NCBI GenBank assembly: GCA_963696605.1
Contig: CAVOKV010000006.1
Coordinates: forward strand, 86,786-150,785
DNA length: 64,000 bases
Source: an uncultured Acidobacteriota bacterium
GTDB taxonomy: Bacteria; Acidobacteriota; Terriglobia; Acidiferrales; UBA7541
Reading direction: 5' to 3'
Part shown: positions 2,181 through 62,952 of the stretch, piece after piece
How positions within the stretch are numbered: position 1 is the stretch's first letter
Layout: each line of letters opens with the position of its first letter
Position numbers and translations under genes: made by a program
The notes under the pieces: model-generated
Seen by the model: only the letters and a program-made list of their open reading frames with translations
Told to the model about the DNA's origin: nothing
Databases searched by the model: none

Positions 2181-2256
2181 GTAGGACAGGCTTCAGCCTG
2201 TCTGCTTTTCCGACTTAACGAAAAATCAAAACCAGACAGGCTGAAGCCTATCCTAA
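2181..2256. repeat. REPIN-like doublet A (family 1)
   Basis: Left arm GTAGGACAGGC-TTCA-GCCTGTCTG (2181-2204). Right arm CAGACAGGC-TGAA-GCCTATCCTAA (2233-2256). 28-nt spacer. The right arm overlaps the last codons and stop of the upstream permease. Confidence 0.85.
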
Positions 2257-3807
2257 TCGCGCCTCCCCAGACCGCCGTGACCACGCCCAATACACCGGAA
2301 CTCCCAGAAGCACGATCACCAGTCCGGGCCAGGTGTCCTGCGTTTGATACAAAATCAAAATCAGCATAATGATAAGAGCGGTAACGATATACAGAATTGG
2401 GACAACGGGATACCCCCACGCGCGATAGGGCCGGTCGGCATCAGGTCGCTTGCGGCGCAAGACGAATACGCCGCCGATGGTAAGCACGTAAAATATCAAC
2501 ACCGCGAAAATGACATAGTCCAACAAGACGCCGTAGAGATTGCCGTAGCTCACGGCGCCGCTCGCCGCATTTACCAGACGCGTCCGCAGCAGGACCAGGA
2601 CGGCAGCCCAAATTCCCTGTAGGACGAGTCCCATCGCGGGAACGTGGCTGGCATTCAGCCGCCCGATGCTGCGAAAAAATAATCCGTCCCGCGACATCGC
2701 GTAGTAAACGCGTGCGCCGGCGAGGATCAGTCCGTTGGCGCAGCCGAACGTGGAGATCATGATGGCCAGCGCCATCAGCGTCGCTCCGCTATGGCCAAAA
2801 ATCGCCGCCAGAGTGGCGGTGGCGACGCGGTCGTCGGGGGCGGTCTGAATCTGGTGCAGGGTGAGTGTCGAAAGGTATCCCAGGTTGGCCAAAAAATAGA
2901 GCGTGATGACCACTGCCGTGCCAACGGCGAGCGAAACGGGAATGTCCCGCTTCGGATTTTTGACTTCACCGGCGGTGAAGGTGATGTTGTTCCAGGCATC
3001 CGCGGAAAAAAGCGATCCCACCTGAGAAACGCCGAATGCAATGATCAAACCGAACGTTCCCGACGCTGCGGTCACGGAAGGAATGAAAGACTTCATCCAG
3101 GCCGCGCCCGGCTCGATGGTTTGGGGATCGTGCAGCGTCCACAGGCCGCTGAAATTTGCATGGATCGCGGCGGCGTTCCGGCCGAGGAAAATTCCAGCAA
3201 AAATTAGCGCGGCGAGCCCCAGCGTCTTCGCTGAAGTAAAAATATTTTGGATCCACTTTCCCAGCTTCAGTCCGCGCGTATTGAGGGCCGTCAGAAAAAG
3301 AATCAGGAGCAATGCGACGAGTTGCTGCACGGAAAGGCTGATTGCGTATTTGGCGGAGAGCGCAATCGGAGAAACAACCCAGGTGTTCGGAGAAATTGCG
3401 GGCCACATCACGCCCAGGAATCGCGCAAACCCAACCGCCACTGCGGCGATGGTGCCGGTTTGAATAACCAGGAAGAGAGTCCACCCGTAAAGGAATCCCC
3501 AGAGCGGAGAGTACGCCTCACGAAGATACACGTATTGGCCACCGGCCTTGGGCATCATGGCCGCAAGTTCGCCGTAGGAAAGCGCTGCGGTGACCGTCAT
3601 GAGGCCGGCGATCACCCAGGCGGCCAGCAATCCTCCGGTCGATCCCGCGTTGCGCGCAATGTCAGCGGAAACGATGAAGATTCCCGAACCGATCATTGAA
3701 CCCACGACGATCGTGGTCGAGTCGAACAAGCCCAACCCGCGAACGAAGCCGGAGGAATCCGTTTCGGCGGGAATCGCTGTCGCCAGGTTGGAATTCACTT
3801 CAGACAC
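2248..3807 (-). CDS. APC-family amino acid transporter
   Basis: 519-aa multi-TM ORF. GSMIGSGIF motif near the N-terminus. GTG start preceded by GAGGGAG. Confidence 0.9.
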   Translation of the reverse strand: MSEVNSNLATAIPAETDSSGFVRGLGLFDSTTIVVGSMIGSGIFIVSADIARNAGSTGGLLAAWVIAGLMTVTAALSYGELAAMMPKAGGQYVYLREAYSPLWGFLYGWTLFLVIQTGTIAAVAVGFARFLGVMWPAISPNTWVVSPIALSAKYAISLSVQQLVALLLILFLTALNTRGLKLGKWIQNIFTSAKTLGLAALIFAGIFLGRNAAAIHANFSGLWTLHDPQTIEPGAAWMKSFIPSVTAASGTFGLIIAFGVSQVGSLFSADAWNNITFTAGEVKNPKRDIPVSLAVGTAVVITLYFLANLGYLSTLTLHQIQTAPDDRVATATLAAIFGHSGATLMALAIMISTFGCANGLILAGARVYYAMSRDGLFFRSIGRLNASHVPAMGLVLQGIWAAVLVLLRTRLVNAASGAVSYGNLYGVLLDYVIFAVLIFYVLTIGGVFVLRRKRPDADRPYRAWGYPVVPILYIVTALIIMLILILYQTQDTWPGLVIVLLGVPVYWAWSRRSGEARLG

Positions 3808-3848
3808 GGGGCTGCTCCCTCTTATTTCGGCGGGGTCCCAAGCTTTAG

Positions 3849-3880
3849 AAAAAAATCCAGCACGAAATTATTCCGCGTGC
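3849..3880 (-). terminator. weak candidate intrinsic terminator after thiE
   Basis: On the minus strand, GCACG-N11-CGTGC followed by TGGATTTTTTT, directly after the thiE stop. The stem is only 5 bp. Confidence 0.35.
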
Positions 3881-3884
3881 GAGA

Positions 3885-4526
3885 TCACTCTCCGCGAGAT
3901 GCCGCGGAGGCCGCCACGTCGAGGTATTCACGAGCCCGAACGGCAGGGTTCGAGACGCAGGTCAGGTCGCGAATTACGGCCAGGGAATCAGCGCCTGCGC
4001 GATAGACTTCCGCTGCGCGCTCCAATGTGATTCCGCCAATCGCGACCAGGGGCTTTTTCGTCATCTTCCGCGCCTGCCGCAAGAGCTCTGTCCCGACGAC
4101 CGGGTCGGGATTTTTCTTGGTCGCGGTCGGGAAAATGGGGCCGATGGCAATGTAATCGGCGGAGGTACGGTCCGCCGCAGCTAACTGTTCGAGCGTGTGG
4201 GTGGAAACTCCCACCCAACAATCCGGTCCGCAAATGGCGCGAGCATCTTCGGGGCTCAAATCATCCTGGCCCACATGCACGCCGCCGGCGCCAGCCAGCA
4301 TGACAATGTCCGGGCGGTCATTCACAATCAGCCGGACGCCGCGCGGACCGAGGGCCTTCACAAGTTGCCGGGAGATCTCGAAAAATTGGCGAGAAGAAGC
4401 CGTCTTATTGCGGTACTGAATCAGCTCGACCCCGGATCCTGCCAGCGCTTCGGCCAAATCTAGCTCCGAAATGGTGAGCAAACTGGGGTCGATTATGGCA
4501 TAGAGGCGGGGGAACACAAGGTTCAT
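3885..4526 (-). CDS. thiE: thiamine-phosphate synthase
   Basis: 213 aa. LYAIID, QYRNK, VNDRPDI..AGAGGVHVGQDD, GVSTH, DYIAIGPIFPTATK and VAIGGI motifs in ThiE order. Starts 6 nt after the accC stop. Confidence 0.92.
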   Translation of the reverse strand: MNLVFPRLYAIIDPSLLTISELDLAEALAGSGVELIQYRNKTASSRQFFEISRQLVKALGPRGVRLIVNDRPDIVMLAGAGGVHVGQDDLSPEDARAICGPDCWVGVSTHTLEQLAAADRTSADYIAIGPIFPTATKKNPDPVVGTELLRQARKMTKKPLVAIGGITLERAAEVYRAGADSLAVIRDLTCVSNPAVRAREYLDVAASAASRGE

Positions 4527-4532
4527 ATCGGG

Positions 4533-5882
4533 TTATCCCGCACGCGATGTGGCGAAACGGTCAAGAAAGTGGGTGTCCAACCGCCCGGCGCTGAAATCGG
4601 GGTCCAGCATGATCTTGCGCTGCAACGGAATGGACGTCTTGATGCCTTCGACCACAAACATTTCAAGCGCACGGCGCATGCGGACGATGGCCTCGGCACG
4701 GGTATCTCCGTAAGCGATGAGCTTGGCCACCAGGGAATCGTAATACGGCGGAATCACGGCGTCGGCGTGCGCAGCCGTATCCACGCGTATCCCGGGGCCG
4801 CCCGGGGTGCGGAAGACGGTAATGTGTCCGGCCGAGGGGATGAACGTTTCGGGATCCTCGGCGTTGATGCGGCACTCTATCGCGTGCCCATGCAAATCGA
4901 GTTTGCCGACAACGTCATCCAGCCGCTCGCCCGTCGCAAGGCGGATCTGGGACTTGATCAGGTCCACGCCAGTAACCATTTCCGTCACGGGATGTTCCAC
5001 CTGGATGCGCGCGTTCATTTCGATGAAGTAGATCGAGCCGTCTTCATCCATCAGGAATTCGACCGTGCCCGCGCTGCTGTAGCCCACTTGCTCGAGCGCC
5101 GAGACCACGCGGGCGCCCAGTTCGGCGCGTAGCTTGGAATCCACCGCCGGCGAAGGAGATTCTTCGATCAGTTTCTGGTGCCGGCGCTGGATGCTGCATT
5201 CGCGTTCGCCCAGATGCATGACGCGCCCGTGTTTGTCACCGAGAACTTGAAACTCGATGTGGCGCGGCCGTTCAATGAATTTCTCAAGGTACAAATCGGG
5301 TATGCCAAACGCCTGCTGTGCCTCGTTGCGGGCCGTGGCAAACGCGCCGGGGAGTTCTTCCTCGCCTCGGACGACGCGCATCCCGCGCCCTCCGCCCCCG
5401 GCCGACGCTTTCAAGATTACGGGGTACTTGATTCGAGCAGCCTCCGCAAGCGCCGCGGCTTCGTCCCCCACGATTCCCTGCGAGCCCGGCACGACCGGCA
5501 CGCCTGCAGCGGACATTTCGCGCCGGGCCTGGTCTTTTTCTCCCATCATGCGCAGCAAGTCCGGAGAAGGGCCGATGAAGGTGATGTGCGAAGCCTCGCA
5601 CACCTCCGCGAAATTCGCGTTTTCGGAAAGAAATCCGTAGCCGGGATGGATCGCGTCGACATTGGTGATTTCGGCGGCGCTGATCACTTGAGGAATGTTC
5701 AGATAACTTTCGCTCGACCGAGGCGGCCCGATGCACACTGCTTCATCCGCGAAGCGCACGTGCAGGGCGTTGCGATCCGCCTCGGAGTACACCGCCACCG
5801 TGGCGATGCCCAGTTCCTTGCACGCATCGATGACGCGCAGGGCGATCTCACCGCGATTGGCTATAAGGATTTTTCGAAACAT
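4533..5882 (-). CDS. accC: acetyl-CoA carboxylase, biotin carboxylase subunit
   Basis: 449 aa. [19 protein letters not shown]-terminus, ATP-grasp [24 protein letters not shown]. Confidence 0.97.
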
Positions 5883-5950
5883 TTCAGGCCGAATGTTGCA
5901 TGGTCCGCCGCGGCGGGCCGCGGGGTTTCATTCTTGAATGGCCAAGACCC

Positions 5951-5974
5951 GCAGGCTGAAACCTGTGCCACTAC
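5951..5974. repeat. solo degenerate REP-like hairpin (family 1) in the accB-accC spacer
   Basis: Minus strand reads GTAG-TGGCACAGGT-TTCA-GCCTGCG. It has the GTAG head, TTCA loop and CAGG/CCTG stem core. The TAG of the head is the accB stop codon (5973..5971). Confidence 0.4.
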
Positions 5975-6540
5975 TTCTTCTTCCCAGTGGGCCGCAGCGC
6001 GAACAGCGGTTCGCCGTACTCCACCGGCTGTCCGTTTTCGACCAGGACTCGCGCCACTTCTCCGCTGATATCCGCTTCAATTTCGTTCATCAATTTCATG
6101 GCTTCGATGATGCAGACAGTCTGGCCCGCCTCGACCAGGTCTCCCGCTCGAACAAATGGCCCTGCGTCAGGGCTCGGGCCCGCGTAGAAAGTGCCGACGA
6201 TAGGTGACTTGATGATGTGCTCGTCCGAAGCTGCAACCGCAGCGGAGGCGGCCTGAGACGGCCCTGGGCCGGCCTCCACAGGCGCCTGGGGAGCATTTGA
6301 AGGCGGTTGGGCAAGAATGCCTTGCGGAGCTGCAGTTTGCGCCACCGGAAGCGCCAATACCGGGGCGGCGCCTGTCTGCGGAATGGCCTTCTTCAGGCGT
6401 ATCCTCAGGTCCGCATGGGCATACTCGAACTCCTCCAACCCATGTTCGGACATGAAAGATAACAATCGCTCTAGTTGGCCAAGGTCGACTCCGGGGACGG
6501 AAAAATCAGAACCGGCCGGCTGTTTTTTGGATCCCTTCAT
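5971..6540 (-). CDS. accB: acetyl-CoA carboxylase biotin carboxyl carrier protein
   Basis: 189 aa. Ala/Pro-rich linker, then a biotinyl domain with [11 protein letters not shown] (biotinylated Lys motif). Confidence 0.95.
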
Positions 6541-6548
6541 CGTTGTGC

Positions 6549-7661: not shown

Positions 7662-7690
7662 AGGTCACGCGATATTGTACCTTTCGGGAC

Positions 7691-14713: not shown

Positions 14714-14787
14714 GCGGGCGTAGTTCAATGGTAGAATAGGAGCTTCCCAAGCTCTAGACGTGGGTTCGATTCCCATCGCCCGCTCCA
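14714..14787 (+). tRNA. tRNA-Gly (anticodon CCC), CCA encoded
   Basis: Hand-folded cloverleaf. Acceptor GCGGGCG/CGCCCGC, D arm GTTC/GAAT, anticodon stem GGAGC/GCTCT with loop TTCCCAA, T arm GTGGG-TTCGATT-CCCAT, discriminator T, then CCA. Confidence 0.93.
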
Positions 14788-27082: not shown

Positions 27083-27115
27083 GGTTTCCGTTTTACTGAA
27101 GCACGCTCTTCGATT

Positions 27116-27225
27116 GTCATTCCGAGGCCGCGGCGGCCGACGAATCTCTCTGTGTTTGAGATCCAAAAGAAAGAGAGATTCTTCGCTTCGCTCAGAATGA
27201 CAAAATAGACCACTTTTTCCACAAG
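27116..27225. repeat. family-2 inverted-repeat element (GTCATTC...GAATCTCTC arms)
   Basis: Left arm GTCATTCCGAGGCCGCGGCGGCCGACGAATCTCTC (27116-27150). Right arm GAGAGATTCTTCGCTTCGCTCAGAATGAC (27173-27201), plus a tail ...CACTTTTTCCACAAGC homologous to the end of the copy at 62756-62893. Confidence 0.8.
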
Positions 27226-27261: not shown

Positions 27262-28521
27262 ATGAGCAGAACGCATTGGCTGCGATGGGGATTTACGGCG
27301 CTGGGAATACTATTACCCGCCGTCGCTGCGATTCCCTCCCACGCTCAAGCGCCGACGGACGATTCGGTGGTGTTCATTCACGCAAACGTGATCGACGGGA
27401 TTTCCAATGCGCCCACGATGGACGCCACCGTCGTGGTGGTGAACGGGCGCATCCAGAGTATCGGGCGCGGGGCGGCGCCCGCGGGGCGGGGCGCGGTGGT
27501 CGATCTTACGGGGCACTGGCTGCTTCCCGGGTTCGTGGACGCGCATGTGCACGTGGGCAACCTGGCGGATGCCAAGAGGGCGCTGCGGTCGGGGGCGACG
27601 ACGATTGGCGAGGCCGGTGTCAATCACTTCGCGGACATCGGGATGCGCGAGCTGAATCATAAGGGCGTGGTGGATGTGCCGGATGTGGTCGCGGCCGGGT
27701 ATCACATTCGGACGCATCCGGCGGACGACTATTTCATCGATTTTCCGCAGGACGCCGACTTGATGGGCGGGGTGCATGGCACGGAAGCAGTGCGGCGGAT
27801 GGTGCGGCGAATGGCGAGCCGAGGCGTCGACCGGATCAAAGTGATGGCGACGGAGCGCGCGGGGACGCCGGACACCGATCCGCGCATCCGTATTTTCAAC
27901 GATGAGGAATTGGCCGCGATCGTGGACGAAGCGAACAAGACGGGATTGTGGGTGGTGGCGCACGCGCACGGTGATGAAGGCGCGGCGGCGGCGGTGCGCG
28001 CGGGCGTGCACTCCATCGAGCACGGGACGTACTTGAGCGATGAGACTCTGCGGCTGATGAAGGAAAAAGGCGTGTACCTCGATCCCACGATTACGGCGCT
28101 CGTGGATATGTCCGATCCCGAAGGCGAGTACGACAATCCCATCCTGCAGATGCGCGGGAAAGCCATGCTGCCCACGGGGCGCGAAATGGCGGCGCGGGCG
28201 TGGAAGATGGGAGTGAAGATCGTGGCGGGCACGGATACTTCCTATTTTGATAAGAACAATCGGACGCTGGCGGACGAAATGATCGAGCTGTCCGATGCGG
28301 GGATGGAACCGATGAACGCGATCAAGGCGGGGACGTCGGTGTCGGCGGAGGAATTGGGCGTCGACAAGCGCACTGGATCAATTCGCGTAGGGTACGAGGC
28401 GGATTTTGTGGTGATCGACCGGAGCCCGCTCGAAAACATACGGCACATCGGCGACGTGGTGATGGTGGTGAATAACGGCAGGATCGCGCTGAACCGGTTG
28501 AATGTCGCGCCGCATCCGTAG
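27262..28521 (+). CDS. exported amidohydrolase-family metallo-hydrolase
   Basis: 419 aa. Signal peptide. PGFVDAHVHV metal-binding HxH, later AHAHG and IEHG, and a C-terminal ADFVVID motif typical of amidohydrolase_1/3 proteins. Confidence 0.88.
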   Translation: MSRTHWLRWGFTALGILLPAVAAIPSHAQAPTDDSVVFIHANVIDGISNAPTMDATVVVVNGRIQSIGRGAAPAGRGAVVDLTGHWLLPGFVDAHVHVGNLADAKRALRSGATTIGEAGVNHFADIGMRELNHKGVVDVPDVVAAGYHIRTHPADDYFIDFPQDADLMGGVHGTEAVRRMVRRMASRGVDRIKVMATERAGTPDTDPRIRIFNDEELAAIVDEANKTGLWVVAHAHGDEGAAAAVRAGVHSIEHGTYLSDETLRLMKEKGVYLDPTITALVDMSDPEGEYDNPILQMRGKAMLPTGREMAARAWKMGVKIVAGTDTSYFDKNNRTLADEMIELSDAGMEPMNAIKAGTSVSAEELGVDKRTGSIRVGYEADFVVIDRSPLENIRHIGDVVMVVNNGRIALNRLNVAPHP

Positions 28522-30964: not shown

Positions 30965-31036
30965 GTGGCACAAACTTCAGTCTGTAAGGGTTGGGCCTTG
31001 CAAGGCCAAAAATCCACAGACTGAAGTCCGTGCTAC
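30965..31036. repeat. REPIN-like doublet B (family 1, degenerate)
   Basis: GTGGCACAAAC-TTCA-GTCTGT ... ACAGAC-TGAA-GTCCGTGCTAC. The spacer contains the palindrome GGCCTTGCAAGGCC. Confidence 0.75.
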
Positions 31037-32645: not shown

Positions 32646-32755
32646 GTATGACAGCCACTCCTGGCTGTCCGCTTTTCGATTGCCTGTGCAGCGATGGAGA
32701 GGCAAGCCCTAGATGGGACCGCGAGAGAGAGGACAGCCAAGAGTGGCTGTCCTAC
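32646..32755. repeat. REPIN-like doublet C (family 1, ACAGCCA stem type)
   Basis: GTATGACAGCCA-CTCC-TGGCTGTCC (32646-32670) ... GGACAGCCA-AGAG-TGGCTGTCCTAC (32731-32755). 60-nt spacer. Lies in a divergent intergenic region. Confidence 0.85.
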
Positions 32756-36318: not shown

Positions 36319-36323
36319 ATGAT

Positions 36324-36394
36324 TAGCACAGGCTTCAGCCTGTGAGTTTTAGTCCTCACACTTACAAAACCCCACAGGCTGAAGCCTGTGCTAC
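36324..36394. repeat. REPIN-like doublet D (family 1)
   Basis: TAGCACAGGC-TTCA-GCCTGTG ... CACAGGC-TGAA-GCCTGTGCTAC. Between convergent genes. Confidence 0.9.
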
Positions 36395-38115: not shown

Positions 38116-38327
38116 GAACGCCTCCCTGGCAGATGGCTAAATCCGGATACCAATGTGGTAGCAATATAGACTCGTCCGGCCAAGGAATCAATGCGCCAGA
38201 TCATGTGATTCGTGAATCGTGATTTGTAATTCGGGGAGAGCCCGATGTGTATTTCACTGCGTCGAATTTCTCTGTGTTCCATCTGTCCTCTGTGATAAAT
38301 GTTTTTCACTTCTCAGGAGCGGGAACA

Positions 38328-39953
38328 ATGATTGAAGAAAAAGACGTCCTGATCCGCGTTCGCGATGGAATTCACATGGCCGCGCGAATTTACAGACCGG
38401 ATGGCGCCGGGCCTTTCCCCACGCTCTTTGCCACTTCGCCCTATCGCTATGACAACAACACTCTGCCTGCACAACCGATGTTCTTGTGGCGGGAAACCGG
38501 GCCGATCGAGTGGTACGTGGACCACGGCTACGCCTACGTGCACGCCGATGTTCGCGGAACGGGGCGCTCGGAGGGCGAATTCGAATTCCTCGGCCAGCGC
38601 GAGCAGCACGACCTGTACGACGTGATCGAGTGGATTGGGACGCAGCCCTGGTGCAACGGAAAAGTCGGCGGCATAGGACAGTCCTACTATGCCATGTCGC
38701 AATGGTTCATGGGGATTCAGAACCCTCCCCACCTGGCGTGCATTGCACCCTACGATGGTTTGAACGATCCCTATCGATTTATGGGCTATCCGGGCGGCAT
38801 CGAGGGCGCATTCCTGGCCTACTGGATGAATGCCAGCGTGCGCGTGCCGAATCTCTATCCGGCGAATGGAGACAATCCGCGGCACGTGGCGACCGACCTG
38901 TTCCTGGAAGTGCAGCAGCATCCTTTCTACGATGGTTTCTGGAAGGAACGCGCAGCGTTCGAACAATTGAGCAAGATCAAAGTGCCGCTGTTCTCGATCG
39001 GCGTGTGGGCCAAGCAGGAACTACACCTCGCGGGAAACATCCGAGGCTATCAGCTGGCCAGCGGTCCGAAGAAACTCGCCATCAGCGGTACGGCGACTCC
39101 GTTTTCTTCGCAATCCGATTTTGCGGGCCTGGAATTTCACCAGAAATATTTGCTCCCGTTCTACGACAAATATTTGAAAGACCTCAAGACCAGCTATGAC
39201 GAGAGGCCCAACGTTGAATATTTGGTGCGCAATACGGGAAAGGCAAGGGCATTCGACGCTTGGCCGCCGCCAGGGACAAAACCGCTGCATTTCTATCTGA
39301 GCAAAGGACCGACAGGAAGTGTGACGTCGCTCAACGACGGCGGCTTGGACGCCGCTGCTTCCGGCAAAAGCGGCGGGGGCACCAGCTATACGTATCCGCA
39401 TCCTTCCTGGGTGCTGGGCGTGGTGCCGGTCGGACCCGCTGGACCCGATCCAGTCCGTGGTGTGCTCACGTTCACGACACAGCCGCTGGCGAATGACACG
39501 GAAATCGCCGGGACCGCAAAATTGATTCTCTACGCGGCATCGACGCGGAGCGACACGGATTTTATCGTCAAGATTTCGGAGCAGTTTGAGCAAAGCCATG
39601 AGGAGCGCGCACGCGGCGTTCAGCCTCGAAATTTCATCGTCACGAAAGGATGGCTGCGCGCTTCCCACATGGACCGCGACTCGGTGCACAACACCGAGGA
39701 AATTCCCTACTATACCCACGAGCGGGCGACGCCGCTGAATCCGGGTACGATCTACAAGTTTGAAATTCCGTTCCAGCCAATCGCGTACCTCTTCCACAAA
39801 CGTAACCGGATTCGCGTGGAAATCTGCAACGGCGATTCACCCGTGACGGACTCTTTGTTCTTTCACTTTTACAGGCCGGACAAAATCGGGACCGACACGA
39901 TTTACCACGACGCGGATCATCCTTCGGAGCTTATCCTGCCCGTGCTGATGTAG
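38328..39953 (+). CDS. CocE/NonD family (S15 X-Pro dipeptidyl-peptidase-like) hydrolase
   Basis: 541 aa from ATG 38328. DVRGTGRSEGEF and GGIGQSYYAM nucleophile elbow. C-terminal beta-sandwich. The stop TAG lies inside the GTAG head of repeat E. Confidence 0.88.
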   Translation: MIEEKDVLIRVRDGIHMAARIYRPDGAGPFPTLFATSPYRYDNNTLPAQPMFLWRETGPIEWYVDHGYAYVHADVRGTGRSEGEFEFLGQREQHDLYDVIEWIGTQPWCNGKVGGIGQSYYAMSQWFMGIQNPPHLACIAPYDGLNDPYRFMGYPGGIEGAFLAYWMNASVRVPNLYPANGDNPRHVATDLFLEVQQHPFYDGFWKERAAFEQLSKIKVPLFSIGVWAKQELHLAGNIRGYQLASGPKKLAISGTATPFSSQSDFAGLEFHQKYLLPFYDKYLKDLKTSYDERPNVEYLVRNTGKARAFDAWPPPGTKPLHFYLSKGPTGSVTSLNDGGLDAAASGKSGGGTSYTYPHPSWVLGVVPVGPAGPDPVRGVLTFTTQPLANDTEIAGTAKLILYAASTRSDTDFIVKISEQFEQSHEERARGVQPRNFIVTKGWLRASHMDRDSVHNTEEIPYYTHERATPLNPGTIYKFEIPFQPIAYLFHKRNRIRVEICNGDSPVTDSLFFHFYRPDKIGTDTIYHDADHPSELILPVLM

Positions 39954-40049
39954 CGCAGGCACTCTTGCCTGTGCGATTTTTGCAGTGTTCATTTCTCCGA
40001 GCATTAAAGACTAGCGTAAACCCCGCACAGGCAGGAGTGCCTGTGCTAC
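39950..40049. repeat. REPIN-like doublet E (family 1, CACAGGCA stem type)
   Basis: GTAGCGCAGGCA-CTCT-TGCCTGTGCG (39950-39975) ... CGCACAGGCA-GGAG-TGCCTGTGCTAC (40024-40049). Confidence 0.9.
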
Positions 40050-43310: not shown

Positions 43311-43413
43311 GTAGCACGGCCACTCCTGGCTGTGCGGTTTTGTGAGTTGCAAGTGTGGGCCGTAAATCTTGTGACAGTTGCAAACCCCGCACAGGCATGA
43401 GTGCCTGTGCTAC
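43311..43413. repeat. REPIN-like doublet F (family 1, hybrid arms)
   Basis: GTAGCACGGCCA-CTCC-TGGCTGTGCG (43311-43336) ... CGCACAGGCA-TGAG-TGCCTGTGCTAC (43388-43413). The two arms carry different stems, each self-complementary. Confidence 0.9.
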
Positions 43414-44982: not shown

Positions 44983-45057
44983 GTAGGTTAGGCTTTAGCC
45001 TGTCGCGTTGACGGTAGGGCTTTCCACTAAAAGCAGACAGGCTGAAGCCTATCCTAC
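44983..45057. repeat. REPIN-like doublet G (family 1)
   Basis: GTAGGTTAGGC-TTTA-GCCTGTC ... CAGACAGGC-TGAA-GCCTATCCTAC. The right-arm CTAC contains the stop (45056..45054) of the adjacent minus-strand gene. Confidence 0.8.
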
Positions 45058-46043
45058 CTAAAGCGCGGAAACAGTTTTAACGCATTGTCACGATTGACGG
45101 CGCGCTTGATCTCGTCCGAAACTTGATAATTGTCCCAGCCGTTGGCCGTCGGACCGACGGCACGGTAAGGAAAGTCGCTCCCCCACAAAATCTGCGAGGT
45201 TGGCACCAGGTTCATGAGAGCGGCAAGCGATGAATTGTTAGTCGCGTTCGCCACGTCATAGTGCAATCTCTTGAGCTCGTAGAGAACGCCGTTCGGCACG
45301 CGCGAGGCCAGCGCGCTGCGCGCCTGGAAAAAACCGTTGATGCGCGCAGCCAGCACCGGCATGGTCCCGCCGGAATGGCAAAAGATGAAGCGGATGTCCG
45401 GACAGCGGGCGAACGTGCCGTTCACGAGAAAGCTGACGATCGCGCGGGTGGTATCGAAAACAAATTCAACCACATTGGAAGGAATTCCTGGGATTAAATT
45501 TGCGCAGCAGCAAGGCTCGGTCGGATGGACGAAAACGATGGCCTTGCGGCGATTCAGCTCGTCGAATACCGGAGCAAAGGCAGGATCGCCCGGCCACTTG
45601 TCGTCGTAACTCGTTTGGAGGTAAACGCCGTCGGCTTCGAGCGAGTCAAAGGCATAGGCGATCTCCGCGAGGCTCCCGTCGACATCCGGTAGTGGGAGCG
45701 CGGCGAACATGCCGAAACGCTGCGGATAGTCTTTGGATAGCCGCGCTCCATATTCATTCGCGATGCGCGCGAGCTTGACCGAATTTTCCTTACCCTTGTG
45801 CCACGCGCCCGGCACGGGCAGCGACAAGAGGGACGAGGCGATGCCGAACTCTTCCATCTGCTCTAGAGTCACGTCGGGAGTCCATTTCAAGACAGTAGTG
45901 TCACCCGACGTAATTTCAAGAATGCGGTCGCGGGTGAGATTCGCATATTCTGGCGGGAGCATGTGGTGATGCACATCGATGCGGCGTGGATTTGACGCCG
46001 CTTTTGCACCAGGATCTGTCGGCAGCGCATTGCTAGCGCACAA
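45054..46043 (-). CDS. amidohydrolase_2 (ACMSD/hydroxybenzoate decarboxylase-like) family protein
   Basis: RRIDVHHHMLPPEY metal motif. TIM-barrel hydrolase layout. GAGGAGG lies 7 nt before TTG 46043 (the track start at 46049 is only 1 nt from the SD). Confidence 0.85.
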   Translation of the reverse strand: MCASNALPTDPGAKAASNPRRIDVHHHMLPPEYANLTRDRILEITSGDTTVLKWTPDVTLEQMEEFGIASSLLSLPVPGAWHKGKENSVKLARIANEYGARLSKDYPQRFGMFAALPLPDVDGSLAEIAYAFDSLEADGVYLQTSYDDKWPGDPAFAPVFDELNRRKAIVFVHPTEPCCCANLIPGIPSNVVEFVFDTTRAIVSFLVNGTFARCPDIRFIFCHSGGTMPVLAARINGFFQARSALASRVPNGVLYELKRLHYDVANATNNSSLAALMNLVPTSQILWGSDFPYRAVGPTANGWDNYQVSDEIKRAVNRDNALKLFPRFR

Positions 46044-46060
46044 TGGCAAACCTCCTCAGC

Positions 46061-46627: not shown

Positions 46628-46692
46628 GTAGCGCCCGCCTTCAGGCGGGCATTGTTAGTTTGACCGAATGCCCGCCTGAAGGCGGGCGCTAC
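46628..46692. repeat. REPIN-like doublet H (family 1, GCCCGCC stem type)
   Basis: GTAGCGCCCGCC-TTCA-GGCGGGCA ... TGCCCGCC-TGAA-GGCGGGCGCTAC. Perfect inverted arms. The stem sequence is unrelated to the other copies, but the head and loop are conserved. Confidence 0.9.
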
Positions 46693-51629: not shown

Positions 51630-51704
51630 GTGGAACAGCCACTCATGGCTGTCCGCTTCAGCCTGGATGAGATTGCCAGGGACAGCCAAGAGTGGCTGTC
51701 CTAC
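51630..51704. repeat. REPIN-like doublet I (family 1, ACAGCCA stem type)
   Basis: GTGGAACAGCCA-CTCA-TGGCTGTCC ... GGACAGCCA-AGAG-TGGCTGTCCTAC. The right arm is identical to that of doublet C. Confidence 0.85.
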
Positions 51705-51707
51705 AGG

Positions 51708-53061
51708 TCAACGGGTGCGAACGGCGCGCTCCTCCTCCGTTTGCCCCATGCGAGGCCAGAGGAAACCGAAGACGAGCCAGACCAATCCCGCCGCGATCAC
51801 GATGAGCATCAACAAGCGCAGCGCTTTCGCCAGCGGAGCGGCATCCAGCGCGGGCCAGCGAATTTGGTACTGGCGCAGCACCTGATAGCGGTCGATCATC
51901 CAGTGCCACGCCGTATGCGCCACGATTGCCGAAAGAATGATCGTGCCCATACGTTCGGCTACCACATAGCGGAAGAGAAGCTCCAAAGCAGGGATCATCA
52001 GCGCGAGCACCAGAAGCTGTCCAAGCTCGACGCCGACGTTGAACGAAAGCAGCGAGGTCAGGAGGTGCGAACCCGCGAACTGCATCGTCTGCCGCAAGGC
52101 GAACGAGAAGCCGAAGCCGTGAACCAGGCCAAAGCCAAAGGTAATCATCCATCGGCGCTGCACGGTAGCGCCGCCGACGATGTTCTCCAGCGCCATGTAT
52201 ACGATGGACATGGCAATGAGCGTTTCGATGAGCGGCGGAAACCAAAGCGCATCCGGCGCGAGATTGTAGGCCGAGGCGATCAGAGTGATCGAATGCGCGA
52301 CGGTGAATGCCGTGACCACGGGTATCAGCGAGCGGAAGCGCCGGAACGGGATCACCAGGCAAAACAGAAACAACATGTGGTCGGTCCCATCGAGGATGTG
52401 AAAGAAGCCCAACTTGACGAACTGTCCCGGCGGCCTGAAACCAGCGCGGATCCAGGTGAACGAGGCCGGGATCGCCGAGAAATTCAAACGCGCGGACTGC
52501 GCCGCCCGGCGGCAGAAAGCGAAGCGCAATGGCGACGCGCGCGGCCAGCCGGTCAAGGGCCGGATGGATCGAGAAGTGCGACTGGTCGGATTGGATGGGA
52601 TATTCGAAGAGCACGTCCAGCATCAACTGGTCCCAGAAAATGGTCGTGCCATTTGTGAGTTTCGGACCCATGACGTGCTCGAGCGCCTGATCGTAGGACG
52701 CGAAAGAGGGATCGGATTCCAGGGACAGGCGCGTCTCGACGATGCGTGGCTTTGGCAGAAGTGCGTCTCCTTCATAAACATCGATGAAATCGGAGATCCA
52801 CAAACTTGCGGCTTCCCTCAGCATCGGGTCCACACGGTCGAAGTCGAGGTAGCCCCGATCGCGTTCAGGAAATTCCACGTCTCGCATAGTTTTGAGGGGC
52901 ACGCGAACCAGGAGATTCAGGTGGTTTCCGTCCGGCTTGAAAAACATCTGCACCGTCGCGTCGCTGGGAATATCGTGAGCCGCGAGAGGCAGCGCAGGCG
53001 CGACAGACAGGAGCGCGAGAAACGATGCAAAGATACGAAACGCGGCAATGTTGCGCGGCAT
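51708..53061 (-). pseudogene. HupE/UreJ_2-family metal transporter, reading frame broken by an apparent +1 frameshift near 52425
   Basis: N-terminal exported domain (MPRNIAAFRIF...LAAHDIPSD ... LVHLDPRWFQAAG) is in the frame of ORF 51658..53103. The conserved membrane core (QFVKLGFFHILDGTDHMLF...VHGFGFSFAL...GVELGQLLV) is in the frame of ORF 51708..52556. The frames meet at GCC GCC GGG A CAG TTC. Confidence 0.6.
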
Positions 53062-53239
53062 GGACCGAAAGCGTAATCGCTGGGCACACCTGCTGACAAG
53101 CAAAATTCGGAATCATCTGAATTTGAATTGTGTATACTTCCCTTCGCTAACGGCGCCGCAAGGCAGGGCCATGCGATTGCACCTCATCGCTCGGGCCGCG
53201 GCATTCAAGAAAATCGGCACCTCGCAGGGGAGGATGGAA

Positions 53240-56219: not shown

Positions 56220-56287
56220 GGCAGGAGCGATTGGATTCACGCCCAAGCGCCCAGGCATCCCAAGTGTGTTCCGCGCGAGGAGGCACC

Positions 56288-58078: not shown

Positions 58079-58120
58079 AGCATGACCTGAAATAAGAACT
58101 CGAGTTGGGAAGGGGAAAAA

Positions 58121-58576
58121 ATGAAATTTACGCTCGCGAAAATTGCATTGTTCGCGGTGTTTGTCCTGCTGACCGCTTCCGCGGCCTCCACAGGAGAGGG
58201 TGTTCCGGCCGCAGTTCACTACATCCCCCACGACCAGGCCGCAGCGGTGATGGCCAAGGGCGGCCCGATCGTGAGCGATCCGGGTCTGGTCGTGCTGGCC
58301 AATCGTCGGGAAGCAGGCGCGGTCGAATACCATGAGCATACTAATCACATCTTCATCATGGTCGATGGGGAGGGAACGTTCATTACAGGTGGAACGATGG
58401 TCGGCCCCCAACGAACCAGTCCCGACCAGATGAGGGCAACATCCATCGCTGGTGGACAGACTTTCCATTTGAGCAAGGGCGACGTCATCACGATTCCTGC
58501 AAGGACTCCGCACTGGTGGAAAGAAATCCCGACGAAGACTGTCGGCTACTACGCGATCAACATCGAGAGTAATTGA
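58121..58576 (+). CDS. exported cupin-like protein (tandem paralog 2)
   Basis: 151 aa. Signal peptide. HEHTNHIFIMVDGEGTFITGGTMVG ... GDVITIPARTPHWW, colinear with the upstream gene. Confidence 0.8.
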   Translation: MKFTLAKIALFAVFVLLTASAASTGEGVPAAVHYIPHDQAAAVMAKGGPIVSDPGLVVLANRREAGAVEYHEHTNHIFIMVDGEGTFITGGTMVGPQRTSPDQMRATSIAGGQTFHLSKGDVITIPARTPHWWKEIPTKTVGYYAINIESN

Positions 58577-58609
58577 GTAAGGTCGGCGAATAGATCCATT
58601 CCATCCATA

Positions 58610-59467
58610 TCACTGCAGACGAAATGTCACTTCGAGCGGCATTCGCGTAGCGAAAGGCTTTCCGTCCTTCCCAATCGCTGCCTTGAAGCGCCAGGCGCGG
58701 ATCGCTTCCACCGCATCATCCGTGAGGCCGTCCGCCAGACCGTCAATTACGCCGATGTGATCGGTTACTCCTTGTTCCGTGACCGTCGCGATGAGAAGGA
58801 CGCGGCCTTGAATTCTGTCAGCTTGCGCCTGGGCGGTATACGGCGGATTCGGGCATCTGTTGCACGCGGGAAATTCGATGACGGAATTCCGTGACTGCTT
58901 GCCCCTCGGGATGATCACAGAGTTTCCGCTCTCAGGATCTTTGAATACAAGCGGTTCTCCGCTGGAATCGGCCGCGGGTCGCGTTATCTTGGCGCGGAAT
59001 TGGTCGAGCTTCTTTTGTTGCACGGCGTCGAATACTTCGCTGATCAACTCGTAGCCATCACTTTGCCACTCCAAGGTATCTGTCACGAGAATATCGGCGC
59101 CCGCCGAGGTGGCCACCGCTTTCAGCACTTCAGGAAAGGATGCGTCGAGCGCGATGAACCCTCTGCCTTCAAGTATGTTGATCACGTTCTCGCGCTTCAC
59201 AAGGTGAACGCCGGGAATTGCTTTTTCCAGGTTGGCGCGCAACGATGCCTCGAACAAAGTGCAAACTTCCGTATCTAGTTGGCATTCTTTAAGGCCGGCG
59301 ACGAAAATGTGTTGCTGGCGCGTCTTTGAAATACGCTGGGCTGTCCGGCTGGCGAGCGCTTCTATTTCCTTGGGTGTCTGCGCAACAGCAGAGCTTGAAA
59401 AAACGCACAATGCGGGGACGCACAAAAAGACGGACGTGAGCGCTATTTTGAGTAACCGAGGCATCAT
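58610..59467 (-). CDS. exported protein with C-terminal TonB-type domain
   Basis: 285 aa from ATG 59467 (the track ORF extends to 59770). Signal peptide. C-terminus YTAQAQADRIQGRVLLIATV...G.V......G...GL...A..A....RFKAA...GKP. Confidence 0.75.
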   Translation of the reverse strand: MMPRLLKIALTSVFLCVPALCVFSSSAVAQTPKEIEALASRTAQRISKTRQQHIFVAGLKECQLDTEVCTLFEASLRANLEKAIPGVHLVKRENVINILEGRGFIALDASFPEVLKAVATSAGADILVTDTLEWQSDGYELISEVFDAVQQKKLDQFRAKITRPAADSSGEPLVFKDPESGNSVIIPRGKQSRNSVIEFPACNRCPNPPYTAQAQADRIQGRVLLIATVTEQGVTDHIGVIDGLADGLTDDAVEAIRAWRFKAAIGKDGKPFATRMPLEVTFRLQ

Positions 59468-59623
59468 GCTTTCCTTGTCGGCCGGAATCGGCGTCGAGCG
59501 CAGATTGTAGGCTGCCGGATGCCTGCTTTCAACCGTGACTCGCCGGGGCTGGAAACTCACTTGCCGAGTGATAGAATCCACGCAACGCATCCGATTCGTG
59601 CGGCTATCCAAGGGGGGAGAATT

Positions 59624-60694
59624 ATGGGCATTGCAAGGCGACCAAAATTCGAGCTGGCAGCGAGTATTGTGATCCTTGCGGTTTCCGGCGTGAACGCGCG
59701 GGCGCAGGCCAGCTATGCCCCTCCGAATGATCTGCCCAATCCGTATCGAACCGTTACCAACTGGGCGCAATTGCCCGACGGAAGGAAGTGGGGGTCGACC
59801 TCGGGCGTGACGATCAGCCCGGAAGGCAAAATCTGGACTTATGACCGGTGCGGGGGAAATAGCTGCGCAAATTCAAACCTCGCTCCCATTCTCGAGTTTG
59901 ATCCTTCAGGCAAACTTCTGAAAAATTTTGGCGCGGGAATGTTCATCCTTCCGCATGGAATTTACGCGGACAAAGACGGAAACGTGTGGGTGACCGACGG
60001 GGTCGGAGGAATGGCCACGAGTGACGACGTGGGCAAACACGGAAAGGGCCATCAGATATTCAAATTCAGCCCCGACGGAAAAGTTTTGATGACACTCGGC
60101 AAGGCCGGCGTCCCCGGCAACACCCCGGACACATTCAACCGGCCCTCGGCGGTGATCGTAGCTCCCAACGGCGACATTTTTGTCGCGGACGGACACGGAT
60201 CTCCGCCGAATTCCGTGGTCAACGCGCGCATCGTGAAGTTCTCAAAGGATGGGAAATTCATAAAGGAGTGGGGAGAGCTGGGGACCGCCCCCGGCGAATT
60301 CAACGGGCCTCACGCCCTGGCTTTCGATTCCAAGGGACGGCTTTTTGTCGGCGACCGTTCCAACAACCGCATCCAGATCTTCACTGAGGACGGCAAATTT
60401 ATCGCCGAGTGGAAGCAGTTTGGAAGGCCGAGCGGAATTTTCATCGACAAAGACGACACTATGTATGTGGCTGACTCGGAGTCCACGGACCAGCCGGGCT
60501 ACGGGTATAACCCGGGATGCATGAGGGGGATCCGGATCGGCAGCGTTAAGGACGGCAAAGTCACGGCCTTCATCCCAGACCCAGCGCCGAAGGGAGCGTC
60601 CAGCGCGGCGGAAGGCGTAGCGGTGGACCACCAGGGAAATGTATACGGAGCGGAGGTCGGCCCGATGGATTTGAAGAAGTACGTCAAGAAGTAA
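59624..60694 (+). CDS. exported NHL-repeat (PAL-like) beta-propeller
   Basis: 356 aa from ATG 59624 (GGGGGGAGA SD). Colinear paralog of the N-terminal 345 aa of 32840..34447. Ends ...AEVGPMDLKKYVKK. Confidence 0.88.
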   Translation: MGIARRPKFELAASIVILAVSGVNARAQASYAPPNDLPNPYRTVTNWAQLPDGRKWGSTSGVTISPEGKIWTYDRCGGNSCANSNLAPILEFDPSGKLLKNFGAGMFILPHGIYADKDGNVWVTDGVGGMATSDDVGKHGKGHQIFKFSPDGKVLMTLGKAGVPGNTPDTFNRPSAVIVAPNGDIFVADGHGSPPNSVVNARIVKFSKDGKFIKEWGELGTAPGEFNGPHALAFDSKGRLFVGDRSNNRIQIFTEDGKFIAEWKQFGRPSGIFIDKDDTMYVADSESTDQPGYGYNPGCMRGIRIGSVKDGKVTAFIPDPAPKGASSAAEGVAVDHQGNVYGAEVGPMDLKKYVKK

Positions 60695-60772
60695 TGCGAT
60701 TTCTGCGTTGCGCTTTTCGGTTTTCACCACAGAGGACACAGAGGAAAACCGAGGATTCCAATTCAAAACCAT

Positions 60773-61432
60773 ATGCGAATTCTAAAAGCGCTTCTCATTG
60801 CATTTTTGTTGCTCTCGCCTGCAAACCGGACGGGGGCTGCCCCGGCAGACAAACGCAAGCCCGGGCTGTACTGGACGCTCGAAACGGACAAAGGGAAAAT
60901 CTCCTGCAAACTTTTCGAGGCCGAAGCGCCCGTTACAGTCCACACCATGGTGGGCCTGGCCATCGGGAAAATATCGTACGTGCATCCGGAGACAAAGCAA
61001 GTGGAGCGCAAGAAGTTTTTCGACGGACTAATTTTCGACCGCGTGATTCCGGGAGTCATGATTCAAGGCGGCGATCTGCTTGGCACCGGCGTCGGACATC
61101 CCGAGGGACCGGGCTTTCCCTACAAGAGTGAAATCGCCCCGTCTCTGAAATTTGACACGCCCGGGCGTCTGGCCATGGCCAATAGCGGCCCGGATACCAA
61201 CGACACGCATTTCTTCATCACCGAGGCCGCCTATCCGTCGTTCAACGGAAAGTACACGATCTGGGGACAGTGCGAAAATGTGGACGTTGTGAAAGCCATT
61301 GGGCAGGTGCCGCGCGACGCTGGAGATACTCCGGTCACGCCGGTCCATATTCAACAGGTGGTCATCGAGCGCGTAGGCCTTGCTCCCGCCGATGCGCCGG
61401 AAGCTCCGCCGGCCGATTCCCTTTCAAAATAA
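60773..61432 (+). CDS. exported cyclophilin-type peptidyl-prolyl cis-trans isomerase
   Basis: 219 aa. Signal peptide. FDRVIPGVMIQGGD, LAMANSGPDTNDTHFFIT. Confidence 0.92.
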   Translation: MRILKALLIAFLLLSPANRTGAAPADKRKPGLYWTLETDKGKISCKLFEAEAPVTVHTMVGLAIGKISYVHPETKQVERKKFFDGLIFDRVIPGVMIQGGDLLGTGVGHPEGPGFPYKSEIAPSLKFDTPGRLAMANSGPDTNDTHFFITEAAYPSFNGKYTIWGQCENVDVVKAIGQVPRDAGDTPVTPVHIQQVVIERVGLAPADAPEAPPADSLSK

Positions 61433-61526
61433 TTTCACTCTCAAGACCAGTGAAGCTTCACGCGGTGATTTTGCATTGACAGAGCCGAATGGCAATGGGA
61501 TAGTCGCGCGAAATACGAGGTGTTCC

Positions 61527-61925
61527 GTGAAAATTAAGAATTTGGCATTTCTGATGTTCGCTGTTTGGACTTTTGTGTTCTCAGCGCCAGTCTTTGCACA
61601 TCACGGGGCGTCGGTGTATGACTCGACGAAATTGACCACTGTGAAGGGCACGGTCACGGATTTCCAGTTCATGAATCCGCACACGGAAATCTTGTTCGAG
61701 GTGACGGGCGCGAACGGGAAAGTCGAAAAATGGACCGCGGAAGCCCCAAGCCTGACCACTATGTCCCGGATGGGATGGAACAAGACTTTGTTCAAGCCGG
61801 GAGACCAGATCACATTTGTTGGCAACCTCGCGAAAAACGGATCGCATATCATGCGCCTGCGCAAGGTTGTGTTTCCGAACGGCAAGGAAACCGTGATGGA
61901 TCGCGGCGAGGATTACGCGGAGTAG
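61527..61925 (+). CDS. exported DUF6152-like protein
   Basis: 132 aa from GTG 61527 (GAGGTG 5 nt upstream). Signal peptide ending FA|HHGASVYD. KGTVTDFQFMNPH pattern. Confidence 0.75.
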   Translation: MKIKNLAFLMFAVWTFVFSAPVFAHHGASVYDSTKLTTVKGTVTDFQFMNPHTEILFEVTGANGKVEKWTAEAPSLTTMSRMGWNKTLFKPGDQITFVGNLAKNGSHIMRLRKVVFPNGKETVMDRGEDYAE

Positions 61926-61948
61926 CGTCCGCCGGGGGAGTTTCAGGA

Positions 61949-62743
61949 ATGCGCGATCGCATATTGGTTTTGATGCTTGCTGTAGCGGCCGCTTTCGCCT
62001 CAGCGCCCGCGATCCGCGCCCAGACTGCCGACGGAGTCGCGCCAAGCGCCCACGCACAGGCCCCACCCGTGGACCTTTCCGGAGTTTGGCGGCGATCCCG
62101 GCGCGCGCCTGACAAGCTGCGCAAGTACACGATTTACGAGCTGGCGTTTGCCATCACCAGCGAGAAGCCGCCCATGACTCCCTGGGCGGAAGAAAAATTC
62201 AAAGCCAACAAGCCTAACGTCGGACCGAGGGCTGTTTCCTTATCAGAATCAAACGATCCGATCATGCAGTGCTCTCCCCCAGGGGTTCCGAGGATCTATC
62301 TCATTCGAGGGGAACCAGTGGAGATCGCGAATCTCCCTGGCCGTGTGCTGATGCTCTTCGAGTACGATCATTTCGTGCGCAACATCTACACCGATGGGCG
62401 CGAGCATGCTAAGGATTTACCCGGTACATGGATGGGAGACTCGATCGGCAAATGGGATGGAGACACGCTGGTAGTGGACTCTGTGGGTTTTAACGACAAA
62501 ACGTGGCTGGACAACGATGGCCACCCGCACACCGAGGACCTGCACGTTGTGGAGCGCATTCGTCGCGTGAACCACGATACCTTGACGATCGATACCACGA
62601 TCGAAGACCCCAAGGCATATTCCAAACCCTGGGGAGGGCACGCCATCTACGATTTGAAGCCTGGATGGAATCTTGGGGAAATGGTGTGCGAGGACAACAC
62701 TACGTACGGCGACATGCAGCAAAAATCTGAAGGCAAGAAGTAG
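61949..62743 (+). CDS. exported hypothetical protein
   Basis: 264 aa from ATG 61949 (GGGGGAG SD). Signal peptide ...IRAQT. The stop TAG lies inside the GTAG head of repeat J. Confidence 0.75.
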   Translation: MRDRILVLMLAVAAAFASAPAIRAQTADGVAPSAHAQAPPVDLSGVWRRSRRAPDKLRKYTIYELAFAITSEKPPMTPWAEEKFKANKPNVGPRAVSLSESNDPIMQCSPPGVPRIYLIRGEPVEIANLPGRVLMLFEYDHFVRNIYTDGREHAKDLPGTWMGDSIGKWDGDTLVVDSVGFNDKTWLDNDGHPHTEDLHVVERIRRVNHDTLTIDTTIEDPKAYSKPWGGHAIYDLKPGWNLGEMVCEDNTTYGDMQQKSEGKK

Positions 62744-62952
62744 GACAGGCTTCAGTGGCTGCGGAAAAACTCAAACCTCTGTCATTCTGAGCGAAGCGAA
62801 GAATCTCTCTTCGATTTAAGTATAAGAAAAAAACAAGGAGAGATTCTTCGCTTCGCTCAGAATGACAGAACAAGGCACTTTTTCCGCAACCTGTTCAGCC
62901 TGTCAGTTTAAGTTTAGCCTCTCCAAACTCGACAGGCTGAAGCCTGTCCTAC
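62740..62952. repeat. REPIN-like doublet J (family 1) with its left arm interrupted by a nested element
   Basis: GTAGGACAGGC-TTCAG | 138-bp insert | TTCAG-CCTGTC ... GACAGGC-TGAA-GCCTGTCCTAC (62931-62952). Confidence 0.85.
62756..62893. mobile_element. family-2 MITE-like element inserted into the loop of a family-1 hairpin
   Basis: 138 bp. Terminal inverted repeats (T)GGCTGCGGAAAAA / TTTTTCCGCAACC(TG). Perfect internal 29-bp inverted repeat GTCATTCTGAGCGAAGCGAAGAATCTCTC (62781-62809 / 62838-62866). Flanked by a direct TTCAG duplication (62751-62755 and 62894-62898). Confidence 0.7.

Follow-up and report, generated by a model that had tools for sequence, protein, structure and literature searches.

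The 64-kb window analyzed here (contig CAVOKV010000006.1, positions 86,786 to 150,785) comes from the genome of an uncultured acidobacterium, and its intergenic gaps hold ten inverted doublets of short hairpin arms headed by the tetranucleotide GTAG as well as one single copy of such an arm. This makes 21 arms in all, every one of them lying between open reading frames (ORFs) (Table 1). All ten doublets of the original prediction were recovered by direct reading of the intervals, and the architecture that it had described, a left arm made of GTAG and a hairpin, a spacer, and an inverted right arm ending in CTAC, was confirmed, as were the gene contexts (tandem gaps, convergent gaps, and one divergent gap). 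The single copy, found by pattern scan, had been overlooked. We consider it very probable that these repeats are repetitive extragenic palindromic (REP) doublets forming hairpins (REPINs), that is, nonautonomous single-stranded DNA elements copied by a REP-associated tyrosine transposase (RAYT), and that they represent three families in this acidobacterial genome. The REP/REPIN interpretation had been proposed from the window itself; it now draws on the GTAG head, the folding of the doublets, the concordance of their arms, the lack of target-site duplication, and differences in presence among relatives, and what decides the matter is that identical repeats flank RAYT-type Y1/HUH genes in related contigs.

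Table 1. Arm families, REPIN doublets, and associated repeats of the 64-kb window (positions are those of the window)
Feature	Position	Type	Sequence or arms	Context and properties
Arm family A		A, A'	GTAG-S-ACAGGC-TTCA-GCCTGT-S	7-bp stem; doublets 1, 4, 7, and 10; variant A' (GAC/GTC) in doublet 2
Arm family B		B	GTAG-S-ACAGSCA-CTCN-TGSCTGT-S-C	9-bp stem; doublets 3, 5, 6, and 9
Arm family C		C	GTAGCGCCCGCC-TTCA-GGCGGGC	GC-rich stem; doublet 8
REPIN doublet 1	2181..2256	A	Arms 2181-2202(+), GTAGGACAGGCTTCAGCCTGTC, and 2235-2256(-), head of the latter decayed to TTAG	Gap between two tandem minus-strand amino-acid permease genes; stop of the upstream gene (2248-2250) within the right arm; DNA fold -23.7 kcal/mol, z -9.5
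Single REP	5950..5971(-)	A variant	GTGGCACAGGTTTCAGCCTGCG	Gap from ORF 5971-6540 to biotin-carboxylase gene 4533-5882; from pattern scan
REPIN doublet 2	30965..31036	A'	Stem ACRGAC/GTCTGT, loop TTCA	Gap between MFS transporter and UbiD genes, minus-strand tandem; third small hairpin, GGCCTTGCAAGGCC, in the spacer at 30993-31006
REPIN doublet 3	32646..32755	B	9-bp stem, loop CTCY	Sole copy in a divergent gap, UbiD(-)/NHL-repeat gene(+)
REPIN doublet 4	36323..36394	A	Right arm 36373-36394, GTAGCACAGGCTTCAGCCTGTG	Convergent gap; entire element 89% identical to a copy in L026
REPIN doublet 5	39950..40049	B		Convergent gap, two X-Pro dipeptidyl-peptidase genes
REPIN doublet 6	43311..43413	B		Gap between tandem plus-strand genes
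REPIN doublet 7	44983..45057	A	Left arm decayed	Convergent gap
REPIN doublet 8	46628..46692	C	GTAGCGCCCGCC-TTCA-GGCGGGC	Gap between tandem minus-strand genes; arms 100% complementary; spacer 13 nt; fold z -12.7
REPIN doublet 9	51630..51704	B	Right arm 51680-51704, GTAGGACAGCCACTCTTGGCTGTCC	Adjoins the start of an MFS gene; neighboring ORF 51658-53103(-) uncertain
REPIN doublet 10	62740..62952	A	Left arm 62740-62754 plus 62894-62904, right arm 62931-62952	Convergent gap
Unrelated inverted-repeat element, 139 nt	62755..62893		Inner arms 62778-62817 and 62830-62869; core GTCATTCTGAGCGAAGCGAAGAATCTCTC

The repeats were searched for with mismatch-tolerant patterns, and dinucleotide shuffles served as chance controls. 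At up to 3 mismatches, the type A pattern GTAGSACAGGCTTCAGCCTGTS matched nine times in the window, where 100 shuffles gave a mean of 0.01, and eight matches (shuffle mean, 0.00) were obtained with the type B pattern GTAGSACAGSCACTCNTGSCTGTSC; together they account for 17 arms, where about 0.01 would arise by chance. The GC-rich doublet 8 supplies two more arms beyond these matches, and a looser scan of the window (up to 6 mismatches) returned no further copies. In a mechanical scan for GTAG followed by a hairpin, these arms were the sole strong intergenic matches in the window, and an inverted-repeat finder placed nine of the ten doublets among its top nine pairs, doublet 10 being split into two further pairs (I9 and I16). 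MAFFT did not bring the type A and type B arms into structural register. At gathering thresholds, Rfam matched only a tRNA in the window and left the REPIN arms unmatched; this tRNA-Gly (anticodon CCC, 14714-14787 on the plus strand) is also the only match when ARAGORN is included. The recurrent peptides that had been pointed out in ORFs of the window (HRLKPVL, AQAGVPVL, and HRHECLCY) are straight translations of right arms.

Rather than the one family of arms first described, there are three distinct families, A (including the variant A'), B, and C, all of them GTAG headed. That head is conserved: GTAG is exact in 14 of the 21 arms, and the others depart from it by a single base (TTAG in two, GTGG in three, GTAT in one), with one arm being split. 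Stems are of 7 or 9 bp, loops are of 4 nt, and the arms at 36373, 40025, 43389, 51680, 32731, and 62931 show no mismatch to their consensus. The spacers measure 13 to 54 nt instead of the 25 to 60 nt originally given. Both arms are of the same type in all ten doublets, and in a larger set the two arms match in both type and closing base in 197 of 211 doublets versus 67 expected, a statistic that is inflated because one type tends to dominate each genome. When folded as single-stranded DNA, each of nine doublets (the interrupted doublet 10 was left out of this set) forms one long hairpin, with z scores from -5.1 to -12.7. The exact 21-mer GTAGSACAGGCTTCAGCCTGT occurs in at least 119 8-kb blocks of a species-representative genome collection, none of them from the source genome, and these blocks contain 323 arms, with 101 head-outward doublets versus 5 arranged tail to tail; the cross-genome similarity of whole elements, spacer included, reaches 83 to 89%. 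The repeated unit is thus shown to be the doublet, rather than the single arm. The small hairpin GGCCTTGCAAGGCC from the doublet 2 spacer is seen again between the arms of type A doublets elsewhere (L073 and L074; L-numbers are labels of the related-genome or metagenome contigs and loci compared with the window), and some spacers are therefore conserved parts of the element.

No RAYT-like ORF had been noted in the window, and our search of its 64 kb for a Y1 transposase was likewise negative. Among 130 repeat-bearing stretches examined by motif and tblastn, a single RAYT was found, in L002, as is expected of a single-copy gene. This protein of 181 amino acids, encoded between doublets, matches Pfam Y1_Tnp (28.2 bits; cut-off, 23) and has 2,550 relatives at an E value of 1e-10 or lower, many of which are named RayT or REP-associated tyrosine transposase by JGI. 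Y1_Tnp genes encoding 181 to 182 amino acids and bracketed by doublets are present in L002, L132, L133, and L135. Upstream and downstream of the L133 gene lie GTAGCACAGGCTTCAGCCTGTG doublets, the arm being identical to that at 36373-36394 of the window, and on either side of the L178 RAYT gene stands GTAGGACAGCCACTCTTGGCTGTCC, the same sequence as that of the window arms at 32731-32755 and 51680-51704; the flanks in L135 carry the GAC/GTC variant, as doublet 2 does, and those in L132 carry a GTGG/TTCCA variant. The repeat-flanked HUH/Y1 genes envisaged in the original prediction thus exist in related contigs, in some instances beside arms identical to those of the window.

A scan of metagenome contigs with an alignment of 20 sequences yielded, as its best 80, further RAYT loci, and the 59 with at least 200 nt on either side were assessed. 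By the strict pattern, family repeats are present on both sides of the gene in 40 of them and on one side in 12, and the remaining 7 mostly have variant repeats by inspection. RAYT clusters 1 to 10 are associated with type B repeats and clusters 11 to 16 with type A repeats, and the difference in mean identity of RAYTs by repeat type was reached in 0 of 1,000 label permutations. As the subclades track repeat type, the type A and type B populations of the window imply two cognate RAYTs in the genome or its ancestor; we therefore infer two or more RAYT genes in the source genome, at present or in the past. In Pseudomonas fluorescens SBW25, several REPIN families reportedly share a genome, and each is paired with a RAYT of its own.

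In the 20 aligned proteins, the HUH motif (N95-H96-x-H98), Y155-I156-x2-N159-P160, and the WQ pair are invariant. W134, Q135, D140, and R144 are invariant and H141 is nearly so, and these residues align to the WQ...EH..R of 4ER8, the E. coli TnpA-REP, whose GTAG-reading residues are W94, Q95, E100 (or D), H101, and R104 (PMC6006769). The same structure is the top PDB match by sequence and also by fold (E value, 1.4e-5; TM, 0.48 to 0.51), followed by IS200/IS605 transposases, the fold match being that of a structure model with only moderate confidence (pLDDT, 70.7). The NCBIfam model REP_Tyr_transpos (NF047646) gives 70 to 74 bits, versus 17 to 28 bits for the IS200 model, and the clade thereby falls short of the equivalog cut-off of 80 bits. 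Because of the motifs, the sequence and fold matches to 4ER8, and an NCBIfam score far above that from the IS200 model yet under the cut-off, the 181-amino-acid proteins are, to judge from their sequences, a divergent RAYT clade and not equivalogs.

The RAYT loci of L132 (10001-10546) and L133 (10001-10549) are syntenic, with neighboring proteins 80 to 92% identical and the RAYTs 60% identical, and their flanking repeats differ (GTGG/TTCCA versus GTAG/TTCA). This contrast points to fast co-divergence or to in-place gene replacement. Beside the L133 RAYT, the density of repeats is extreme: the 20.5 kb of L133 (1-20549) hold 36 arms and 14 doublets.

By analogy with the biochemistry of E. coli TnpA-REP and IS608, a RAYT would bind a folded arm on single-stranded DNA, would read the GTAG foot via its conserved W-Q...D-H..R residues, and would use its tyrosine to cut and rejoin the strand. 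A doublet would in this way be moved or copied to a new intergenic site without target duplication, probably at replication forks. The E. coli work on which the analogy draws is reportedly that of Ton-Hoang and of Messing, both from 2012. Around 218 doublets (those of all loci and of the window), no target-site duplication was found above chance: a 3-nt match of the flanks was seen in 7 of 218 versus 3.4 expected, and for direct repeats of k = 2 to 5 the counts were those expected by chance. This is as expected for Y1/HUH single-strand transposition and is unlike the behavior of DDE-type miniature inverted-repeat transposable elements (MITEs). The outer flanks of these doublets have A at position -1 in 58% and T at -3/-4 in 45 to 51%, a bias that may stem from a preference for certain target sites or mean that the element itself reaches further outward. 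The former would predict a T-rich target whose last base is A.

Further copies exist beyond the window, in the GTAGSACAGGCTTCAGCCTGT blocks of other genomes. The blocks listed are mostly from Acidobacteriota, with 41 blocks from metagenome-assembled genomes (MAGs) of Planctomycetota and a few from other bins. The 22-nt core GTAGGACAGGCTTCAGCCTGTC is multicopy in at least 12 Planctomycetota MAGs (GC, 0.63 to 0.73; MAGs of this phylum with the repeat include JBIIQM01, JBIIOK01, and CAMAVC01), in addition to many Acidobacteriota, and Planctomycetota contigs (within L012-L130, e.g., L041, L109, L113, and L125) carry it exactly, as doublets and tandem arrays. The planctomycete origin of these contigs is supported by their GC content and by the presence in L109 of PSCyt1-PSCyt2-PSD1 and DUF1501, a gene pair that is a hallmark of the group. 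Their copies have different tails and spacers and are without a T-run: 58% of low-GC (mostly acidobacterial) arms have TTT no more than 9 nt from the hairpin, compared with 8% in the background and 7% near the hairpins of Planctomycetota copies. No planctomycete RAYT with the shared core was among the best 80 metagenome loci, all of which are of low or middle GC, and a scan of viral contigs for one returned only L002 again and a fragment.

The repeat changes between acidobacterial RAYT subclades and yet is identical across phyla, which suggests transfer. A fairly recent cross-phylum transfer of a REPIN/RAYT system, with acidobacterial arms that additionally gained the T-run of a two-way terminator, is a tentative proposal that we consider possible but somewhat improbable. 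If true, it would contradict the view of REPINs and RAYTs as strictly vertical, lineage-bound partners, and it would bear on how such systems spread. Some taxonomic labels among the compared contigs look doubtful, namely, "Saccharimonadales" for L020, L025, L073, and L074, which have a GC of 0.54 to 0.55 and acidobacterial-type REPINs, and "Kuenenia" for L029, L048, L124, and L129, whose GC of 0.67 to 0.69 we take to be far above that of the genus.

Among closer relatives, contigs at about 84 to 87% DNA identity (L143-145) retain doublets 2 and 3 where the window has them; both arms show substitutions, and the spacer of doublet 3 is shorter. Doublets 2, 4, and 5 are absent from contigs at about 80% identity (L137-142), which by alignment retain nothing but a decayed left arm at the site of doublet 3; the patterns match no arm in 21.7 kb of these relatives. 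Type C copies lie at unrelated sites in L103, L105, L132, and L146. These differences in site and presence show turnover of copies, in which gain and loss are inseparable because the relatives are 16 to 20% diverged (about 20% for the more distant ones).

Several points weigh against the REPIN reading. No clean empty site was found among the relatives compared, the "empty" site of doublet 2 in L137 showing no clean footprint, and transposition itself is something that we infer. The heads of 7 of the 21 arms are decayed and several stems are mismatched, which fits ageing copies. Among the loci assessed, type C had no cognate RAYT, and the lack of a RAYT within the window means that the population could be orphaned. 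To these points belong also the inflated concordance statistic, the moderate confidence of the structure model, and the score of the RAYT clade below the equivalog cut-off.

The alternative that survives best is that of orphaned REPINs: the RAYT of an ancestor would since have been lost, leaving immobile relics that are kept where they are harmless or useful, e.g., as terminators. Gene loss is suspected where REPs occur without tnpA-REP (Quentin et al. 2018, PMC6006769), and beyond the missing RAYT and the mutated heads and stems, doublets 2 and 3 occupy the same sites in a relative at about 84% identity and are therefore old. However, RAYTs are usually single-copy genes, so that absence from 64 kb of a multimegabase genome is little informative. 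Several arms are perfect, those of doublet 8 being fully complementary, and the window has 21 arms in 64 kb, whereas the patterns match none in 21.7 kb of the relative at about 80% identity, a difference in density that speaks for an expansion of the repeats once the two lineages had separated. We regard an orphaned population as unlikely.

Whatever moves them, the REPINs of this acidobacterium have terminator-like tails. Most window arms are followed by G-N-TTTT, the T-runs being short (3 to 5 T); for this reason, the arms score near the top of the terminator-like sites in the 28- to 48-kb region, on the strand reading in. Nine of the 10 doublets have one arm or both directed at the 3' end of a gene, and 4 of 6 convergent gaps, counted by inspection of the ORF list, are occupied. 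Together with the frequent T-run of acidobacterial arms, this is what one would see if the arms were host-evolved intrinsic terminators, immobile and alike through shared function. As an account of origin, such a reading is already contradicted, and we give it very little credence: identity over 22 to 25 nt, with a fixed GTAG head and loop, extends across dozens of unlinked sites and genomes, one doublet sits in a divergent gap, the same core occurs in Planctomycetota without the T-run, the repeats bracket RAYT genes, and their presence varies among relatives. The earlier statement that the copies are not simply terminators therefore holds as to origin, but a hairpin and T-run are built into the arms. 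Since the arms carry both, a secondary role in termination is plausible. The inward-facing T-runs of acidobacterial arms would make an inserted doublet a two-way terminator, and an acidobacterial doublet at the 3' end of a gene may plausibly serve as a two-way intrinsic terminator or as a 3'-end stabilizer.

The TAG of a GTAG head can also be the stop codon of the adjoining gene, as at 39951-39953 (gene 38247-39953; left arm of doublet 5), at 62741-62743 (gene 61730-62743; left head of doublet 10), and at 45054-45056 on the minus strand (gene 45054-46049; right head of doublet 7). In the planctomycete contig L109, PSD1 and DUF1501 genes likewise end in a GTAG head. Over all loci, at least 100 open codons are found in the TAG frame in 132 of 541 arms; the counts for the other frames are 76 and 87.

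Ordinary MITEs moved by a DDE transposase encoded elsewhere are poorly supported and the least credible account, for although the size of 65 to 110 bp, the terminal inverted repeats of 22 to 26 bp, the intergenic location, and the DDE transposase genes in related loci L137, L143, and L146 would suit them, target-site duplications are lacking around the 218 doublets, every terminal repeat folds into a hairpin of its own on a GTAG foot, arms are also seen singly and in tandem arrays, and the consistently flanked gene is Y1/HUH, not DDE.

REP elements, bacterial interspersed mosaic elements (BIMEs), REPINs, and RAYTs are well described (PMC3116915, PMC3337134, PMC5581495, PMC6006769). In the REPIN/RAYT system of P. 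fluorescens SBW25 (PMC3116915, PMC5581495), inverted doublets likewise form one long hairpin and replicate as doublets, and the RAYT gene is likewise flanked by its own REPINs. The system described here differs from it in its host (Acidobacteriota instead of Gammaproteobacteria), in its stem and loop sequences, in its T-run tail, and in its RAYT of 181 amino acids, which has an N-terminal R-x-L-P-H-W...TWRL and lies under the NCBIfam equivalog cut-off. Further, its core is common to two phyla, whereas vertical inheritance and lineage specificity are described for the Pseudomonas systems. With the E. coli REP/BIME elements and TnpA-REP (4ER8), it shares the GTAG foot 5' of the hairpin and a Y1/HUH enzyme whose GTAG-reading positions are occupied by WQ, by an acidic residue with H after it, and by R; the E. 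coli stems are longer and bulged, unlike the window arms, and identity to TnpA-REP is 19% over the structural alignment, the clade described here being known from its sequence and a model of moderate confidence.

In the survey of Di Nocera et al. (2013; PMC3733652), 24 GTAG families are described from more than 80 species of Proteobacteria, Cyanobacteria, Chloroflexi, and the Planctomycetes-Verrucomicrobia-Chlamydiae (PVC) group, with head-outward (HH) dimers dominating and with locations mostly downstream of genes, in tandem or convergent gaps. According to that survey, these families, which include ones from Rhodopirellula baltica and Opitutus terrae, have the same tag, stems of 6 to 9 bp, short loops, HH dimers, and location as the repeats described here, and some are likewise common to distant organisms. 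For Acidobacteria, it mentions only TIRYTs, tyrosine transposases with long terminal inverted repeats. These TIRYT/TIRtron genes (Di Nocera et al. 2013; subclass 2.1 of Quentin et al. 2018, PMC6006769) are likewise RAYT-like Y1 transposases in Acidobacteria; as described there, they have long inverted repeats with GGGGWSAS and helix-turn-helix-like C-terminal extensions, whereas the clade described here has 181 amino acids and GTAG or GTGG REP doublets. The planctomycete variant could be identical to one of the 24 families; the supplements to that paper do not contain the core sequence.

A full-text literature search for the core sequence returned no paper, in agreement with the earlier statement that no formal description of the family was known. 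What is new is three families in a phylum without earlier description in the searchable literature, the kind of element itself being known; the analogy first drawn to proteobacterial REP/REPIN-RAYT systems thus fits the element, but the host is an acidobacterium. It is Acidoferrales-like, and the 90%-identity clusters to which proteins of its contig belong include members named Candidatus Acidoferrum or Acidiferrales. REPINs and RAYTs are a model of long-term, vertically inherited "replicators within genomes" in Gammaproteobacteria and, to our knowledge, have been studied almost solely in that class. Dense populations of several families extend them to uncultured soil Acidobacteriota, a major soil phylum, and the match of RAYT subclade with repeat type offers a natural data set for joint change of enzyme and target. 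Further, MAG annotation is affected, in that the repeats give rise to spurious ORFs and lengthen genes at their ends, with three to four window genes stopping inside a repeat, and REPINs probably also interrupt short-read assemblies.

Doublet 10 owes its length to an unrelated 139-nt inverted-repeat element that interrupts the loop of its left arm and has a duplicated TTCA at its two junctions. This element belongs to another family, outside the REPIN family. L020 and L025 also contain this composite, in which an element of the 139-nt type splits a REP arm, and the composite itself therefore seems to be repeated. An exact 25-mer of the nested type of element, to which no transposase was linked, also occurs in L039, L060, L075, and L137-142. 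Within the window, a second, more diverged copy of this element, GTCATTC(T/C)GAG...GAATCTCTC, is found at about 27113-27203, before gene 27262-28521.

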